64,000 bases of DNA from IMG/VR virus record IMGVR_UViG_3300014059_000004; one strand, given 5' to 3'. Below the pieces are notes generated by a model. It did no database searches. It saw only the letters and a program-made list of their open reading frames with translations, and was not told the origin of the DNA. Below, one piece after another: positions 739 to 56,644 of this stretch (position 1 is its first letter; each line of letters opens with the position of its first letter). The position numbers and the translations under genes were made by a program. This DNA comes from a virus.

Positions 739-1737
739 ATGGCATGTAGTAATATTCTTCTCATGGCTAAGAAGAAGGTTGATCCAAAGAACTACAACGT
801 AGGTTTGATGCACCCTGACGAGCTCGGCGCTCTGAAGGCTCTTGTGAAAGAGTTCATCGGAAAGATTGAAGCGGTTGACAACGAGATCGAGCTCCTGAAA
901 GGTGATCGAGTTGAGATTATTGAAGAATATTCGACGCAACTTGATATGAAAACCCTTCAAGCTGCACTTAAAGTCGTCAAGATCCAATCGTCTGTTGCGC
1001 ACCGTGACACGTTCGATTTGTTCGTCGAAAGCCTCAGCGATCACATTTTAGGAGACACAATGGCCAAGAATTCAAAGACTAAGGCGAAGAAGGCGAAGAA
1101 AGTTGCGGCAGAACCATCACGTGAAGAACGGATGGAATCAGCAGTAAAGAAGGTCGCCAAGAAGAAGGAAAAGGCAGTCACTGCTAAAGTGAAGGTCGCG
1201 AAGACGTTCGAGCTGAACCTAACGAAGTTTGAGCTGCTGCACTTGAGAGATCTTCTCAGCGTTGCCCTCCCACCAGAAGGCCGCGTCACCGTGTCGCAAG
1301 CTCTTGCAAAGCTGGAGAATCGACCGTTGATCGAATCTTACCTGTGGAACAAGGTCAGCGATGCATGCATCTCAGCGGATCTTCCGATGGATTCATCAGC
1401 ACCTGATTACGTGGTTGCCCCTTCTGGCGCACCGCCACTCGGAGTCTTCCAGCTCGCGCAAGAAGAAGCTTCTGACTCATCTGACGATGATGCCTCGAGC
1501 ATCTTTGAAGATGAAGAAGATGATCTTGAAGGCCTCGACGAGCTCGATGAGCTTGAAGAGGATGACGAGGAAGAAGAAGACGAAGAAGGAGATTTACATG
1601 GACTTGAAAGTCGGACAGATCATATACGCGGTCTTGCCAAAGAAGATGATCGTGTACCCGCTGCGTTGCGTAGAGGAGATCACAAAGAAAACTTTGGAAG
1701 GAACGAAGATCGATTACATCTTGGAGTCTGGAGGTGA
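739..1737 (+). CDS. hypothetical protein with Lys-rich centre and strongly acidic D/E tail
   Basis: 332 aa ORF; acidic run EEDDEEEEDEEGD near 1560-1590; true 3' end uncertain (overlaps next gene). Confidence 0.45.
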   Translation: MACSNILLMAKKKVDPKNYNVGLMHPDELGALKALVKEFIGKIEAVDNEIELLKGDRVEIIEEYSTQLDMKTLQAALKVVKIQSSVAHRDTFDLFVESLSDHILGDTMAKNSKTKAKKAKKVAAEPSREERMESAVKKVAKKKEKAVTAKVKVAKTFELNLTKFELLHLRDLLSVALPPEGRVTVSQALAKLENRPLIESYLWNKVSDACISADLPMDSSAPDYVVAPSGAPPLGVFQLAQEEASDSSDDDASSIFEDEEDDLEGLDELDELEEDDEEEEDEEGDLHGLESRTDHIRGLAKEDDRVPAALRRGDHKENFGRNEDRLHLGVWR

Positions 1738-7055: not shown

Positions 7056-8266
7056 AATTTTTCGTACCTGCAGTTGGTTACCAGATCGTCCTCGCTGCTG
7101 ATTGGAACTTCTCGCTCTACCTCGAAGACAGGAACGACACGTGCCTGAAGCTCTTGGCGCCCAAAGTCTACGAGGATGTGAAAAGCAACTGGCACAATCG
7201 TTCCAAATCCGGAAAGGGCTGGCCGCTCGATTACAAGCACGAGTCTGTGATGCTGCCGAAAGGCACGAAGCTGGAGATCGATCGAGTTTACGTTCGAACT
7301 GCGAACAAGGCCAAGGAAGGATCTGACAACTACGATTCCATCACGTTCAAAGTTGTTGGCGAAAAATCGAAAGTTCGCTTCTGGGCGAAGCTCGAAGACG
7401 TCAACAACATCGAGTACGAGCTCCCAGACAACTTCACTGCAGGCAAAGAAGCTGCAGTGAAGGCAGCGAAGGCACCCAAGAAGCTGACGCTTAAGGATAT
7501 CACAACAACCATCGATGGCGCTTTGCACCTGTACGATCGGGAAGACAAGCGCAATTACCCGAAATGGTTGACAGCAACTGCGCAGGGTGAGATCAAGCAC
7601 CTGCTTGATACGTTCAATTCATTTGCAATTCCAATCAAGCGTGCCGAGAGTGAAGCTCGCCGGCAAGTTGCTGAGCGCGATGCAAAGTTGCGCTATGCAC
7701 AAGGTAACTTTCCTGCGTACTTGAAGACCACGATCAAATCTGTGGAAGAGTACGTGAAGTGGGACTTGCAGCACCGCAACTATAATCTCAGGTTGCAACC
7801 TGAGATTGATGACAAAGATCTCCGTGAAGATGCGGCTCGAGTCATCGCGTACCATCTTCTTAGTTACTACTGCGTTAGCAAGGTGCAGTTCAAGCGCAGA
7901 GCTGATGGTTCTGCAGTTCGAACGTGGTCATTTAAGGTCAGAGATAATGTTCCCACGCCGCCGAGCATCCATGCCATCGACGTGTCAAAGTATTGGTTGC
8001 AAGTCGCGGTCGATCCTACCGAGACAGAGATCGTCAGCTTCTCGTGCGGTGTGGACGGGAATCCTCCGCCAGTCGCTTTAGACCGCTCGGAGTTATCACG
8101 AGAAGCCCACGAATTAATTCGAGATAAACAAATGGTTAGTACTGTGGTATCATTTATCAGTAAATCGTGGGCTAACATCGACTGGGACAGCGTGTACTGC
8201 TGGCTCGTCGTTCCATGCACAGGAAGGATTCAAAGCAGATGTCGTTCATCAGATGGCCAGAGATAG
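7052..8266 (+). CDS. hypothetical protein (404 aa)
   Basis: GTGA coupling to upstream stop; long clean ORF. Confidence 0.55.
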   Translation: MKFFVPAVGYQIVLAADWNFSLYLEDRNDTCLKLLAPKVYEDVKSNWHNRSKSGKGWPLDYKHESVMLPKGTKLEIDRVYVRTANKAKEGSDNYDSITFKVVGEKSKVRFWAKLEDVNNIEYELPDNFTAGKEAAVKAAKAPKKLTLKDITTTIDGALHLYDREDKRNYPKWLTATAQGEIKHLLDTFNSFAIPIKRAESEARRQVAERDAKLRYAQGNFPAYLKTTIKSVEEYVKWDLQHRNYNLRLQPEIDDKDLREDAARVIAYHLLSYYCVSKVQFKRRADGSAVRTWSFKVRDNVPTPPSIHAIDVSKYWLQVAVDPTETEIVSFSCGVDGNPPPVALDRSELSREAHELIRDKQMVSTVVSFISKSWANIDWDSVYCWLVVPCTGRIQSRCRSSDGQR

Positions 8267-9412: not shown

Positions 9413-10096
9413 ATGAGATATGTTTATCTGATTCAGAATCTAATCAACGGGAAAGTATATGTTGGGCAAACGAAAAATTTTTCCAATAGAAAAGCAGGAC
9501 ATTTGTATTCTGCCAAGAAAGGTGATCTTCGACCTCTTTACTGTTCCATCCGAAAATATGGTCATGAAAATTTCGAGTTTCGAATTCTAGAAGAGTGTGA
9601 TGATCATGAGTGTGATGATCGTGAAATTTATTGGATATCACATTATGATTCGTTTAACATCGATAGAGGTTATAATCTGACGCGTGGAGGAGAAGGATCT
9701 ACGGGTTGCGTTGTTTCGATAGAAACTCGTCAGAAAATGAGTGATAAACACCGCGGAAAACCTAAGTCACTAGAACATCGCCAGGCAATTTCTCGTGCAA
9801 GACTTGGTTGGGAAGGTTTGCGTGGCGCTAGAAATCCAAATTTCGGAACACATCTTACTGATCAAGCACGTAAAAAAATTAGTGAGCATGCTAAACTACG
9901 GATTGGAGTGAAAAATCCAAATTGTTCATTGACTGAAGATGATGTTAAGGGAATCAAGTATCAATTGTCAATTGGAACTAGAGTTTGTGACATTGTGAAA
10001 CTGTTCAATATTAGTCGTTCTCAAGTAAATCGGATTAAGCTTAACAAGCAATGGAAGCACGTAACAATAGAATTATGCGTCCTCATATTTGTCTAG
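9413..10096 (+). CDS. GIY-YIG homing endonuclease with NUMOD3-type DNA-binding repeats
   Basis: YVYLIQNLINGKVYVGQT...R...H GIY-YIG core; repeated ETRQKMSDKHRGK / EHRQAISRARLG / DQARKKISEHAK NUMOD-like motifs; strongly AT-rich versus flanks. Confidence 0.85.
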   Translation: MRYVYLIQNLINGKVYVGQTKNFSNRKAGHLYSAKKGDLRPLYCSIRKYGHENFEFRILEECDDHECDDREIYWISHYDSFNIDRGYNLTRGGEGSTGCVVSIETRQKMSDKHRGKPKSLEHRQAISRARLGWEGLRGARNPNFGTHLTDQARKKISEHAKLRIGVKNPNCSLTEDDVKGIKYQLSIGTRVCDIVKLFNISRSQVNRIKLNKQWKHVTIELCVLIFV

Positions 10097-53929: not shown

Positions 53930-54154
53930 CTAAAAGGCGGTCAATGAATCGTACGTGTCATCATGGGTCGGGTAGCTCTTCCAGACCTTAAAAGTTTCCA
54001 AGCTCATGAACCCAATGTCGAGCAATTCACCATCGTCGTGCTTCATCGTCTTCCAGATCACCATGACCATCGCCTTGCGACCGCCGCCGGGTCTCCAGCC
54101 TTCCTTGTCCCACAGGAGCAATGTCCCCGGTTGAAGATCTTTTACGTACACCAT
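53930..54154 (-). CDS. array paralog (QPGTLL variant)
   Basis: MVYVKDLQPGTLLLW. Confidence 0.5.
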   Translation of the reverse strand: MVYVKDLQPGTLLLWDKEGWRPGGGRKAMVMVIWKTMKHDDGELLDIGFMSLETFKVWKSYPTHDDTYDSLTAF

Positions 54155-54375
54155 AATAGCATCGTTGCGTAGCAGTACTGCTCGTCGACTTCACTGACAG
54201 TATCCCAGAATCTCTGCTCTTCCGCGCAGAAGAATCTGACCCTCCTCCAATAAACGTTGCTCTCGTGAGCCCAGATGCCGATCACCATGACTGTCACTGG
54301 CGTCGTCAACCTTGGAACGATTGTGCGATCCCAGCGCAATAGAGTTCCTGGTTGAATGTCTTGAACTTTGACCAT
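54142..54375 (-). CDS. array paralog (QPGTLL variant)
   Basis: MVKVQDIQPGTLLRW. Confidence 0.5.
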   Translation of the reverse strand: MVKVQDIQPGTLLRWDRTIVPRLTTPVTVMVIGIWAHESNVYWRRVRFFCAEEQRFWDTVSEVDEQYCYATMLLWCT

Positions 54376-54489
54376 GTGAAGAGTTCTTTTAGCGCTACGC
54401 AGGCACGTTTAACAGTATTCAACAATTGTATTACGTTCGAACATGAGCTGGGTTGTGTATAAGAGAACGAATACGTTGAATAAGAAAAT

Positions 54490-54711
54490 TTATATTGGGC
54501 TCACGATCACGTGCCCTGCGTTCTCGCAGGGATGATGTTCACCCCAAGGCTTTGTGCACCATTTATATTCCGGGTCGACATTGTTGAACGTTTCAACTTT
54601 GCCATCATGGATTGTGACCATCGTGCTACCCTTTGTGCTGACGAACACGTGGAGCGTTCGAACCCAAGTGACGATCGATCCGGGAAGTATGTTCTTTGTC
54701 TTTATTGTCAT
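54490..54711 (-). CDS. array paralog variant
   Basis: NILPGSIVTW. Confidence 0.45.
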   Translation of the reverse strand: MTIKTKNILPGSIVTWVRTLHVFVSTKGSTMVTIHDGKVETFNNVDPEYKWCTKPWGEHHPCENAGHVIVSPI

Positions 54712-54986
54712 TGTGCGAGGATGAAGGGGGTGACTGAGCTGCCGAGCTCACGCTTGAACTTCTCAATGTCACCGCACACGGGCCACAGGTGGTTCTCTTG
54801 GACCTCGATCCAGTTGAGCCGGCTCATGGGGGAGTGCCAGGAATGCTCAAGCATCGTGACTTTGTACCAGAAGTCGTCCTTCAACGTGGGATTGGGAACT
54901 TTACCGATGCACAAGACAACGTACAGCGAAGAAGCCCACTGGATGAGGGCACCAGTTTTGACATCAGTTGTGGGGATGAATAGCAT
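54708..54986 (-). CDS. array paralog variant
   Basis: DVKTGALIQW. Confidence 0.45.
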   Translation of the reverse strand: MLFIPTTDVKTGALIQWASSLYVVLCIGKVPNPTLKDDFWYKVTMLEHSWHSPMSRLNWIEVQENHLWPVCGDIEKFKRELGSSVTPFILAQ

Positions 54987-55062
54987 CTGTTGAATTGTGC
55001 AAACCCGTGGATTGACGCATGCGCGTCACCCGGTGGAGTGATGAGCTGGGCTCATCAACCTG

Positions 55063-55144
55063 TGGAGCAACCCTGAGTCGAACAGGGACCGCGCATGGCG
55101 GCTCGGGTGGTTTAAGCCCCAGACTCTCCTGAGATTATTGCCCC
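55063..55144 (-). other. tRNA-like element: canonical T-arm plus acceptor 3' strand (GGTCCCTGTTCGACTCAGGGTTGCTCCA), followed by 7-bp hairpin; 5' half does not fold into a canonical D/anticodon arm
   Basis: T-stem CCCTG/CAGGG, T-loop TTCGACT, 7-nt acceptor complement GGGGCAA 82 nt upstream; downstream hairpin GATGAGC-TGG-GCTCATC at 55040..55056. Confidence 0.35.
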
Positions 55145-55870
55145 TTGCCCGAGAGATCACGGGTCACTCATGGTTTCATTGTAACCGGTTTAGTGTATAT
55201 TATACACATGGTGATCGAGAAGTTTGTTGAAGCAAAAGTTCAACATCTACGCATGAAGTGTGATCAATGCAACGTTGAATTTGTTCGCAACAAAAACGTA
55301 AGAATGCTCATGTCGCGGCCTCGACAATATTGTTCATCTGGCTGCGCTTCTGGTGCTCTACGCAAAGGCGGTATTGCTGATGCTTCGCGAAAGAAGACAT
55401 GCACTGAGAAGTATGGATCATCTTACTTTATTATCACACCTCAAATTCTCGCGCAGAACGCAGAGAGATCTCACACGCCTGAAGCAGAAGCCCGCCGGCG
55501 GGCCGCCGTCAGAGAATCTTTGAAGAGCACAACAGTTCAGCTAAGACGTGGGCTGTTTTTGACACGATCTAAAGCTGAGATCAAGTTCTTTGATGCCCTG
55601 GCCGGGGCCTTGGGTTATAAACTAGAGACGCAAGTATACATCAACGGTTGGTGGATCGATGCTTGGTCACCTGTTCATGATGTTTGGCTTCAATTCGACG
55701 GCGTATACTGGCATTCAAAACCGGGCGCTGTTCTTCGTGATCGAGCTCAAGATCTGTGGTTTGCAGATCAAGGAAAAAGATTGATCAGAATCACTGATGT
55801 AGAAGCACGAAACGCCAGGTCCGTTGAAGACCTGGCGTTGAAGATTACTAATCCAGTGGGTAGTTCATAA
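55145..55870 (+). CDS. endonuclease-like protein: N-terminal Cys cluster plus C-terminal DUF559/Vsr-like PD-(D/E)xK-type domain
   Basis: CDQCNVEF...CSSGC; C-term WIDAWSPVHDVWLQFDGVYWH resembles E-x-D-G-x-x-W-H restriction-endonuclease-like motif. Confidence 0.45.
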   Translation: MPERSRVTHGFIVTGLVYIIHMVIEKFVEAKVQHLRMKCDQCNVEFVRNKNVRMLMSRPRQYCSSGCASGALRKGGIADASRKKTCTEKYGSSYFIITPQILAQNAERSHTPEAEARRRAAVRESLKSTTVQLRRGLFLTRSKAEIKFFDALAGALGYKLETQVYINGWWIDAWSPVHDVWLQFDGVYWHSKPGAVLRDRAQDLWFADQGKRLIRITDVEARNARSVEDLALKITNPVGSS

Positions 55871-56644
55871 CTCAAAGACGTTGATCTGACCCATCTCGTG
55901 CAGTCCTTCCTTATTGTAGCCAAGGACGTAACCCCGACCGGAACATCCAAACCTATTCTTTGTCACCTCGAAGATGCGCTGCCCGTAGGAAGGCGACTTC
56001 TCCTGCTGGTCGATGTAAAGCTTTCCTCGGACGTCGATGGCGTGGAGGATGCCGTTCTTCCCAGAGAACTCGCCGTCCTTGTTCACCTGGCCGATGAAGA
56101 CCACGCACCCGTAAGTCGCCTTGGCCCACTCGGTCAGCATCTCGGTTGCACGGAGCGGCGTGGTCCCGTTCGTCCCGTTGGAGTACTTCCCGTCGTCCAG
56201 AGTCTGCAAGGAGTCCTGGAGGATGAAGACCTGCTTGCCCTTGTGAACCTTGCGCAGTTCATCAGCATGGGCCAGGAGATCCGGCACCATGATGTCCTGC
56301 CCGCAGACGAAGCCGTGCTTCAGGTTGAGGCGCTCGGTGACCATGCGGACCTGGTGCAGGGATTCCTCGCCCGTGTTGTACAGGCAGATGTGACCGGACT
56401 TCGTGATGGAATCTGCAACCTGCAGCAGCATCGTGGTCTTCCCAGCACCCGGCGTACCCGTCAGCATCATCACCGAGGAAGGCACGAATCCCTCACCGCC
56501 CACCGCATCGTCGAACCAGGTGACGCCCGTCTTCACTCGCCGGCGCAGGGCATCCGGGACCTTGACGTCCATGATGTTCGTCCCACGCTTCAGGCCTTTG
56601 ATCCCAACATTGATTGACATTGACCGGGCCATTGTATACCTCAA
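55865..56644 (-). CDS. RecA-superfamily ATPase (single-domain RadA/Sak4/KaiC-like)
   Basis: Walker A LTGTPGAGKTTMLLQ, Walker B VFILQDSLQ, 259 aa. Confidence 0.55.
   Translation of the reverse strand: MRYTMARSMSINVGIKGLKRGTNIMDVKVPDALRRRVKTGVTWFDDAVGGEGFVPSSVMMLTGTPGAGKTTMLLQVADSITKSGHICLYNTGEESLHQVRMVTERLNLKHGFVCGQDIMVPDLLAHADELRKVHKGKQVFILQDSLQTLDDGKYSNGTNGTTPLRATEMLTEWAKATYGCVVFIGQVNKDGEFSGKNGILHAIDVRGKLYIDQQEKSPSYGQRIFEVTKNRFGCSGRGYVLGYNKEGLHEMGQINVFEL

Follow-up and report, generated by a model that had tools for sequence, protein, structure and literature searches.

The minus strand of positions 55063-55144 carries a real, conserved gene for an 82-nt tRNA-shaped RNA. We read its product as probably a conserved, alanine-chargeable, non-decoding tRNA mimic, encoded downstream of a RadA-like ATPase gene, because in a comparison of sequences the end recognized by AlaRS is kept and there is no conserved anticodon arm. 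The window, i.e. the whole 64,000-nt stretch of DNA that was analysed (IMG/VR record IMGVR_UViG_3300014059_000004), belongs to an uncultured phage that is close to none of 50,697 annotated phage records; IMG/VR also includes a near-identical contig of 81.6 kb.

As the initial annotation had pointed out, the minus strand from 55090 to 55063 (GGTCCCTGTTCGACTCAGGGTTGCTCCA) reads as a T-stem and T-loop followed by a 7-nt acceptor strand and a discriminator A, with the other acceptor strand, GGGGCAA, at 55144-55138. The two strands had been described as perfectly complementary: they do form 7 bp, but position 3 is a G3·U70 wobble, and this wobble is the most informative feature of the element. The parts of the RNA are as follows.

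55063-55144, minus strand: gene of the 82-nt tRNA-shaped RNA, with G1 at 55144 and the discriminator A73 at 55063, supported by ARAGORN and by the minimum free energy cloverleaf
55138-55144, minus strand: acceptor 5' strand GGGGCAA, pairing with 55064-55070 and including the G of the G3·U70 wobble
55123-55134, minus strand: short D hairpin UCUC-AGGA-GAGU, whose stem has 3 bp and a U·U and whose 4-nt loop includes GG
55104-55121, minus strand: weak hairpin in the anticodon-arm position, UGGGG / CUUAAAC / C-A-CCCG, from which the 'UAA anticodon' of ARAGORN originates
55088-55102, minus strand: long variable arm, with a 5-bp stem and a 5-nt loop
55071-55087, minus strand: T arm CCCUG-UUCGACU-CAGGG
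55064-55070, minus strand: acceptor 3' strand UUGCUCC, followed by A73 at 55063 and then by a C at 55062

The 3' CCA is not encoded. The cloverleaf, with its 7-bp acceptor, canonical T arm and long variable arm, emerges unaided from thermodynamic folding of the region; compared with shuffled controls, it is not unusually stable (z = -0.8). The middle of the molecule had been reported to resist folding into canonical D and anticodon arms, and rightly so: the D arm has a 3-4-bp stem and a loop of only 4 nt (AGGA), and the arm in the anticodon position forms 5 bp and the 7-nt loop CUUAAAC if A37 is bulged, or else 4 bp and a 10-nt loop. A scan of both strands of the window gave a single site, 55063-55144, where a T-loop motif goes with fully paired T (5/5) and acceptor (7/7) stems. 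The ARAGORN check that had been recommended gave a single gene in the whole window, a tRNA-Leu(UAA) at 55062-55144 on the minus strand, whose anticodon falls at position 31 and not at 34-35. The uniqueness of the site, the ARAGORN call, and the conservation with covariation in other phages together show that the element is more than a chance resemblance.

It is nevertheless not a canonical tRNA. The 7-bp acceptor stem and the 5-bp T stem with a UUCRANY loop are there, but a 5-bp anticodon stem with a 7-nt loop is not conserved among the orthologues. Rfam at gathering thresholds (29 bits for RF00005) gave no match anywhere in the window, and in a 401-nt search at 54900-55300 neither RF00005 nor the tmRNA models appeared at E<=10. 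RF00005 was likewise silent on the RNA copies of the related loci L005, L024 and L109, and RF00023 (tmRNA) on the window and on the L005 and L109 RNAs; the best Rfam match of the L109 RNA was tRNA-Sec, sub-threshold at 19 bits. Positive controls behaved as follows: the same kind of Rfam run gave 45-69 bits for the ordinary tRNAs of L026 and L027, and RF00023 gave 158 bits for the full tmRNA of L026 and, under the same conditions, 43.2 bits for the RNA of phage DS6A and 32.9 bits for that of L028. Lack of a covariance-model hit together with lack of a match to any host tRNA 3' end had been named beforehand as grounds for giving up the element; the Rfam tRNA and tmRNA models are indeed silent, and the gene is supported by ARAGORN, conservation and covariation. 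The absence of an RF00005 match at E<=10, added to an anticodon arm that is not conserved in the homologues, is why we do not consider the window RNA a canonical tRNA. Among the three possibilities offered initially, an 'unusual or type-II tRNA' comes closest, in that the tRNA shape is complete and the variable arm is long.

Homologues were sought by anchoring the search on the RadA-like ATPase protein, and about 20 related loci were fetched. Three sequence types of the RNA (82/83, 109 and 110 nt) were found downstream of the same ATPase gene in related uncultured phages. The 82-nt window type is present as an identical copy in L024, L103 and L104; L004 (IMGVR_UViG_3300033121_002167), whose flanks differ by 1.5-9% from those of the window, has at 1478-1560 the same RNA as window 55063-55144 with one extra C in the variable arm. 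The second type (L005 and L101) is 109 nt long and begins 12 nt past the ATPase stop codon; the third (L109) is 110 nt long; a small ORF follows the ATPase gene there, and the RNA begins 10 nt past the stop codon of this ORF. Since these loci were found by synteny and not by RNA sequence, the acceptor ends of the L005/L101 and L109 RNAs are unbiased observations.

Three lineages among the about 20 related ATPase loci thus have the RNA; in the other relatives the slot after the ATPase gene is empty, or holds a canonical tRNA-Lys (L016) or an unrelated tRNA-like RNA (L102). Eleven contig look-ups for the remaining close homologues of the ATPase added one type (L109) and more copies of the L005 type (L101), and no RNA was found in the slot of L098-100, L105-108 and L110-112 (five further lineages) or of L115-L119. 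In BLAST searches of the 50,697 phage records at near and distant settings, the locus and both RNA types matched generic T arms only, an exact 25-mer search of viral contigs returned only the phage's own contig, and covariance model R1, built on the family and giving the window RNA 84.9 bits, detected over about 410 kb no additional member and no second copy in the window. Pattern scanning of metagenomes gave one genuine copy, that of L024, the remaining matches being due to chance; the L026 match, which is not homologous, falls within a genuine tmRNA, in its pseudoknot 4. In cellular genomes, a relaxed alanine-acceptor pattern picked up 67 loci, most of them ordinary tRNA-Ala genes whose GC-rich leader happens to contain GGGGC..GGA; among the rest are two genes for tRNA-Tyr, a real tmRNA matched in its 3' part, and some odd sequences. 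L113, a viral match at longer gap, is explained likewise, and the sole addition made by acceptor-free patterns in viral contigs (L114) was a chance match. As neither the pattern scans (viral contigs, metagenomes and cellular genomes) nor the covariance model added members, the RNA family, small and unannotated, is rare and patchy, within a narrow clade of uncultured phages.

Comparison of the three types reveals which parts of the molecule are held constant. In the acceptor, D and T helices, 93.8% of the alignment cells are paired, against 39-59% (about 50%) when the partners are slid, and 7 pairs change on both sides. Acceptor pairs 1-5 (G-C, G-C, G·U, G-C and C-G) and A73 are invariant in all types, pairs 6 and 7 being A-U/A-U, G-C/C-G and G-C/A-U. 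In the T stem, three of the five pairs vary with compensation. The conserved D hairpin NCUC-NGGA-GAGN starts with a pair that depends on the type (U·U, U-A or C-G). The D loop NGGA and the T loop UUCGANU are constant across the family; they are what a tRNA elbow needs, and NGGA can supply G18G19. The central arms drift: the one in the anticodon position has 4-5 bp in the window and 11-12 bp with an internal loop in L005 and L109, where it is capped by 3-4-nt loops (UUAG or GGC(G)), and the variable arm ranges from 5 to 10 bp, the latter in L109. Because the arms go from 4-5 to 10-12 bp, and those of the longer types end in loops of 3-4 nt, the family as a whole does not have a 'UAA anticodon'. 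A first alignment had equated the CUUAAAC hairpin of the window with the CUUAGG tip of the L005 arm, both containing leucine anticodons; it was dropped, because L109 has GGC(G) at that place and the window stem aligns opposite the basal stem of L005, so that we treat the likeness as chance. The RNAs of L005 and L109 are far more stable than shuffled controls (z = -3.5 and -3.0), each forming a clean cloverleaf of five helices.

Constraint is also visible at short range. The four window-type strains show zero substitutions in the 82 nt of the RNA, whereas their downstream gene is at 86-94% nucleotide identity and the 3' end of their ATPase gene at 93-98.5% identity. Together, G1-C72, G2-C71, G3·U70 and A73, invariant in the window, L004, L005 and L109 types, constitute the alanine identity set as given in PMC9976931. 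The other attributes of a tRNA-Ala, an NGC anticodon in a canonical arm and a short variable loop, are not found. With only three divergent sequence types, the invariance of G3·U70 depends on few independent lineages; our rough estimate is p ~0.02.

The features that surround the RNA gene are listed below.

55865-56644, minus strand: gene of a RadA/Sms-like RecA-family ATPase (Pfam KaiC/AAA_25/DnaB_C), the syntenic anchor upstream of the RNA
55145-55870, plus strand: opposite-strand ORF with a probable ATG at 55208 and a weak Vsr/EDxHD-type endonuclease signature
55145-55167, minus strand: 5' leader with the motif ACCCGTGATCT, common to L005 (ACCCGCGATCT, directly after the ATPase stop codon)
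55039-55057, minus strand: optional 3' hairpin with loop CCA, found in the window, L004 and L103 (with another loop in L103)
54993-55054, minus strand: 62-nt segment missing from L024, which includes most of the hairpin
54708-54986, minus strand: first small gene downstream (92 aa), the yardstick for flank divergence

On the 3' side, the stem-loop described immediately after the acceptor exists (TGATGAGC-CCA-GCTCATCA), though with 8 bp instead of 7 and without U tract. It is missing from L024 and L104, whose RNA is identical to that of the window; in L104, 29 nt of the 54993-55054 segment are deleted, and CTCCAC direct repeats flank the deletion. Being an optional indel between strains with the same RNA, the hairpin lies outside the conserved unit. 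Further downstream, 54142-54986 (minus strand) and beyond hold consecutive small genes (92, 73 and 77 aa) with alike N-terminal motifs (..D/N-I/V-xPG..V/L-xW..), apparently the start of an 'array' of small paralogous genes; similar small genes follow the ATPase gene of the relative L003.

On the 5' side, the ATPase is about 30% identical to RadA and has 702 homologues. The spacer between its gene and the RNA differs in content, without homology, between configurations: the window and L004 have the opposite-strand ORF there, L024 has two ORFs, and there are tandem repeats of CACCCGAT (four or three copies) in L103 and L104, and nothing in L005, so that it looks like an insertion hot spot. The ORF at 55145-55870, which is not in L024, L103, L104 or L005, gave three matches, to a PHROG homing endonuclease (E=5e-4), to Pfam REase_MTES_1575 (E=0.014) and to PDB 3r3p, 'Mobile intron protein' (E=0.35); weak but concordant, they suggest a Vsr/EDxHD-type homing endonuclease. 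Its product has a CxxC motif, the weak endonuclease match falls in the C-terminal domain, and the ORF abuts the 5' end of the RNA gene. Directly before its ATG at 55208, and 49 nt upstream of the first base of the RNA, is a perfect palindrome containing TATAAT (GTGTATA-A-TATACAC, 55193-55207), which, judged by its sequence, could be an operator or promoter element. A sigma-70-like promoter was not found on the strand of the RNA. Canonical tRNA genes occur near the same ATPase gene in relatives, Lys-UUU in the same slot of L016 (5829-5903) and Ser-CGA upstream in L011 (4796-4883), and L003 has canonical Arg-CCU, Leu-UAA and Arg-UCU tRNAs in a divergent operon (1742-2779); the ATPase neighbourhood is a general tRNA-gene slot.

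Bacterial tRNA-Ala shares with the window RNA the first five acceptor pairs, A73 and the 7/5 acceptor/T branch. The D stem CUC/GAG of the window RNA and the flanking 'UA' resemble GGGGCUAUAGCUCAG...GAGAGC, and the 5' 21 nt of the window RNA are likewise similar to tRNA-Ala, with the D loop shortened. The differences are in the remainder: no NGC anticodon and no conserved anticodon loop, silence of RF00005, a D loop cut to 4 nt, and a long variable arm where tRNA-Ala has a 5-nt variable loop. Allo-tRNAs and tRNA-Sec have in common with the family a non-canonical cloverleaf, a long variable arm and an extended D stem with a 4-nt loop. The allo-tRNAs, however, have an 8/4 or 9/3 acceptor/T branch and a 7-nt anticodon loop, against a 7/5 branch and an anticodon-position arm of varying length here. 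In PMC5389517, G3:U70 occurs together with non-alanine anticodons in some allo-tRNAs and irregular natural tRNAs, and some of these RNAs are thought to be charged yet unused in translation.

Other unusual RNAs were encountered on the way. In L102, a relative with 78% identity, the ATPase gene is immediately followed, at 1089-1164 (plus strand), by a 76-nt tRNA-like RNA on which ARAGORN is silent; it has the acceptor AGCCCA/UGGGCU, discriminator G and an encoded CCA, and folds as a cloverleaf with a 4-nt loop on the arm in the anticodon position (z = -2.4). The tRNA cluster of L027 includes two RNAs with G3·U70 acceptors: one of 108 nt at 1065-1172 (plus strand), with a D hairpin GUGU-UAGGA-ACAC, a non-tRNA middle and no Rfam match, and one at 1390-1448 (plus strand) that is a 59-nt tRNA without anticodon arm (RF00005, 44.5 bits). 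The bacterial loci L074 (3534-3620, minus strand), L046, L080 and L086 have odd GGGGC.../...GCUCCA sequences not called by ARAGORN; that of L074 has a very stable fold (z = -4.4). Finally, the minus strand of L028, a 126-kb viral contig, has at 7914-8013 a 100-nt match to RF00023 (32.9 bits, E=6e-10) with an acceptor, one long helix and a T arm, which appears to be a second phage tmRNA reduced to its tRNA-like domain ('TLD-only'), like that of DS6A.

The ARAGORN call suggests an odd but working decoding tRNA that would use the anticodon UAA to read UUA and UUG; we regard this as rather unlikely. It could be charged by LeuRS, in line with its A73 and its long variable arm, or, via G3·U70, by AlaRS, in which case alanine would be placed at leucine codons. 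Like a type-II tRNA-Leu(UAA), e.g. the canonical one of L003 (CUUAAAA), the window variant has in its loop CUUAAAC both U33 and A37; relatives do carry tRNA genes, one canonical tRNA-Lys even occupying the same slot, and natural irregular tRNAs with mismatched identity and anticodon exist (PMC5389517). Unlike tRNA-Leu, the window RNA has a G3·U70 acceptor, a minimal D loop, a bulged stem or 10-nt loop in the anticodon position, and no sequence similarity to real tRNA-Leu; the arm itself is unconserved in the homologues, L005 and L109 having 11-12 bp and a 3-4-nt loop, and RF00005 is silent at E<=10. Among the leucine identity elements, A73 and the GG are present, but E. coli LeuRS needs the hinge elements A15-U48 and A20a (PMC9976931), and neither A15 nor A20a fits into a D loop of 4 nt. 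UUA is moreover the rarest leucine codon of the phage (4% of Leu codons), and codon demand was rejected on this ground as an explanation of the RNA. Because the 'UAA' is unconserved, the codon that it would read is the rarest for leucine and the hinge elements are lacking, we take the ARAGORN isotype as accidental; decoding is possible only for the short window variant.

The alanine-type end made the initial hint at tmRNA a useful lead, the acceptor being of the tRNA-Ala/tmRNA type. A member of the tmRNA family reduced to the tRNA-like domain (a TLD-only ssrA), which would bind SmpB and block or replace host trans-translation, is in our opinion improbable all the same. The likeness to the TLD-only (CDS-less) RNAs of mycobacteriophage DS6A (located at JN698994 28478-28560) and of L028 is considerable: these too are phage-encoded, of about 83 nt (83 nt in DS6A, 82 nt here), with a GGGGC.../...GCUCC-A acceptor including G3·U70 and A73 and a canonical T arm, without tag reading frame and without encoded CCA, and they are not decoders; the vicinity of replication genes also fits. 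But RF00023, which detects both of them, is silent on the window, L005 and L109 RNAs, the tmRNA-specific D-loop (GGaUUCGAC) and helix-2a (GGAC) signature of that model is lacking, and the family has two central arms and a 4-nt loop on a D stem, unlike a TLD with its single helix 2 and stemless D loop. On these grounds the window family is like the DS6A RNA in concept without being a member of its family. An equally small chance is given to an RNA-processing or stabilizing module, whose tRNA shape would recruit RNase P and RNase Z so that the polycistronic transcript is cut between the ATPase gene and the small-gene array or a 3' end is protected, the alanine-type acceptor being a mere relic. 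The start of the L005 and L109 RNAs 10-12 nt past a stop codon, the location at a boundary between gene blocks and the missing sigma-70-like promoter on the RNA strand would all suit such a module; it leaves unexplained why the G·U and acceptor pairs 1-5 are invariant while other stem pairs drift, and most relatives with the same gene order do without the RNA. That the gene is a decaying, functionless pseudogene or, as had been proposed, a tRNA remnant might be argued from the non-canonical D and anticodon arms, the silent covariance models and the weak thermodynamic signal of the window copy. Zero substitutions across four strains despite a 2-14% flank difference, compensatory changes between lineages and the high stability of the L005 and L109 versions contradict this and make it very unlikely. 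Least probable, to the point of being barely conceivable, is the tRNA- or tmRNA-derived attachment-site core (attP) also put forward initially. The T arm and acceptor 3' strand do resemble the segment targeted by many integrases, as in the attachment cores that phages derive from tRNAs, and the site is at a junction of variable content. Nonetheless, the 21-nt 3' end (GTTCGACTCAGGGTTGCTCCA) had 0 exact matches among 185,579 species genomes, the ORFs of 150 aa or more in the 64-kb window gave neither integrase nor recombinase families, and the full cloverleaf, with both acceptor strands, is present and covarying; an att core is rejected for these reasons.

The non-decoding, alanine-type tRNA mimic thus remains our preferred reading. 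The RNA would be transcribed together with the upstream genes, to judge from the L005 and L109 arrangements, in which it starts 10-12 nt past a stop codon. RNase P and 3' nucleases would then release it, the CCA-adding enzyme would complete its end, and the host AlaRS, which reads the acceptor end only, would charge it with alanine. That such an end can direct alanine insertion is illustrated by the G3:U70 allo-tRNAs of Mukai et al. 2017 (PMC5389517), which, when given CUA anticodons, put alanine at the amber codon in E. coli. The acceptor/T-elbow half of the mimic would occupy or divert a host factor handling alanyl-tRNA or tmRNA. By analogy, and as a guess, the target could be SmpB-tmRNA ribosome rescue, as with the TLD-only RNA of DS6A, which inhibits endogenous tmRNA in E. 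coli (PMC4131195, PMC11915505), or else a tRNA-directed defence enzyme. No SmpB family was among the 14 families reported for the 44 ORFs at E<=1e-6. In published SmpB-TLD structures, SmpB binds the TLD in the region where the window RNA has its D stem and anticodon-position arm, which makes titration of SmpB doubtful. Several points speak against the mimic reading: the small number of divergent sequence types, the rarity and patchiness of the family, the ordinary stability of the window fold, the lack of the tmRNA-specific signature, and the canonical-looking 7-nt loop CUUAAAC (U33, A37) that the window RNA can form with one A bulged.

Besides GroEL and several DNA-repair enzymes, the phage genome specifies an RNA ligase, a homing endonuclease of the GIY-YIG type and a protein similar to the major vault protein. 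The RNA ligase (PF09414; 8215-9234, plus strand), beside which lies the GIY-YIG/NUMOD3 homing endonuclease (9413-10093, plus strand), hints at RNA or tRNA repair during infection. The vault-like protein (31338-34079, minus strand) has 914 aa with major-vault-protein domains (MVP_shoulder E=2e-30, Vault_3 and Vault) and its gene lies where the G+C content is higher; in eukaryotes, vaults contain small RNAs.

The family is best described as a variant among the phage tRNA/tmRNA-like mimic RNAs. More tentatively, it may stand for an as yet undescribed functional class of phage RNAs, alanine-chargeable tRNA mimics without anticodon, distinct from both tRNA and tmRNA. The anticodon-less tRNA-like RNAs of L102 and L027, although unrelated in sequence, may belong to the same mimic class. 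By keeping only the acceptor/T-elbow half, which is what host enzymes read, mimics of this kind could serve as decoys or inhibitors of ribosome rescue or of tRNA-targeting immunity. The usual explanation of tRNA genes in phages is codon supply or, lately, escape from tRNA-cleaving defences, and the TLD-only RNA of DS6A is, to our knowledge, the sole tested precedent for a non-decoding use. A conserved alanine acceptor end joined to a drifting anticodon half points to a use outside decoding, and the label 'tRNA-Leu' given by ARAGORN would here mislead annotation and arguments based on codon usage. If the RNA is charged and acts as a mimic, the idea of phage RNAs that block tmRNA would be extended beyond the tmRNA family, and this 82-110-nt RNA would be a simple object for studying how phages interfere with translation quality control or with tRNA-directed immunity.
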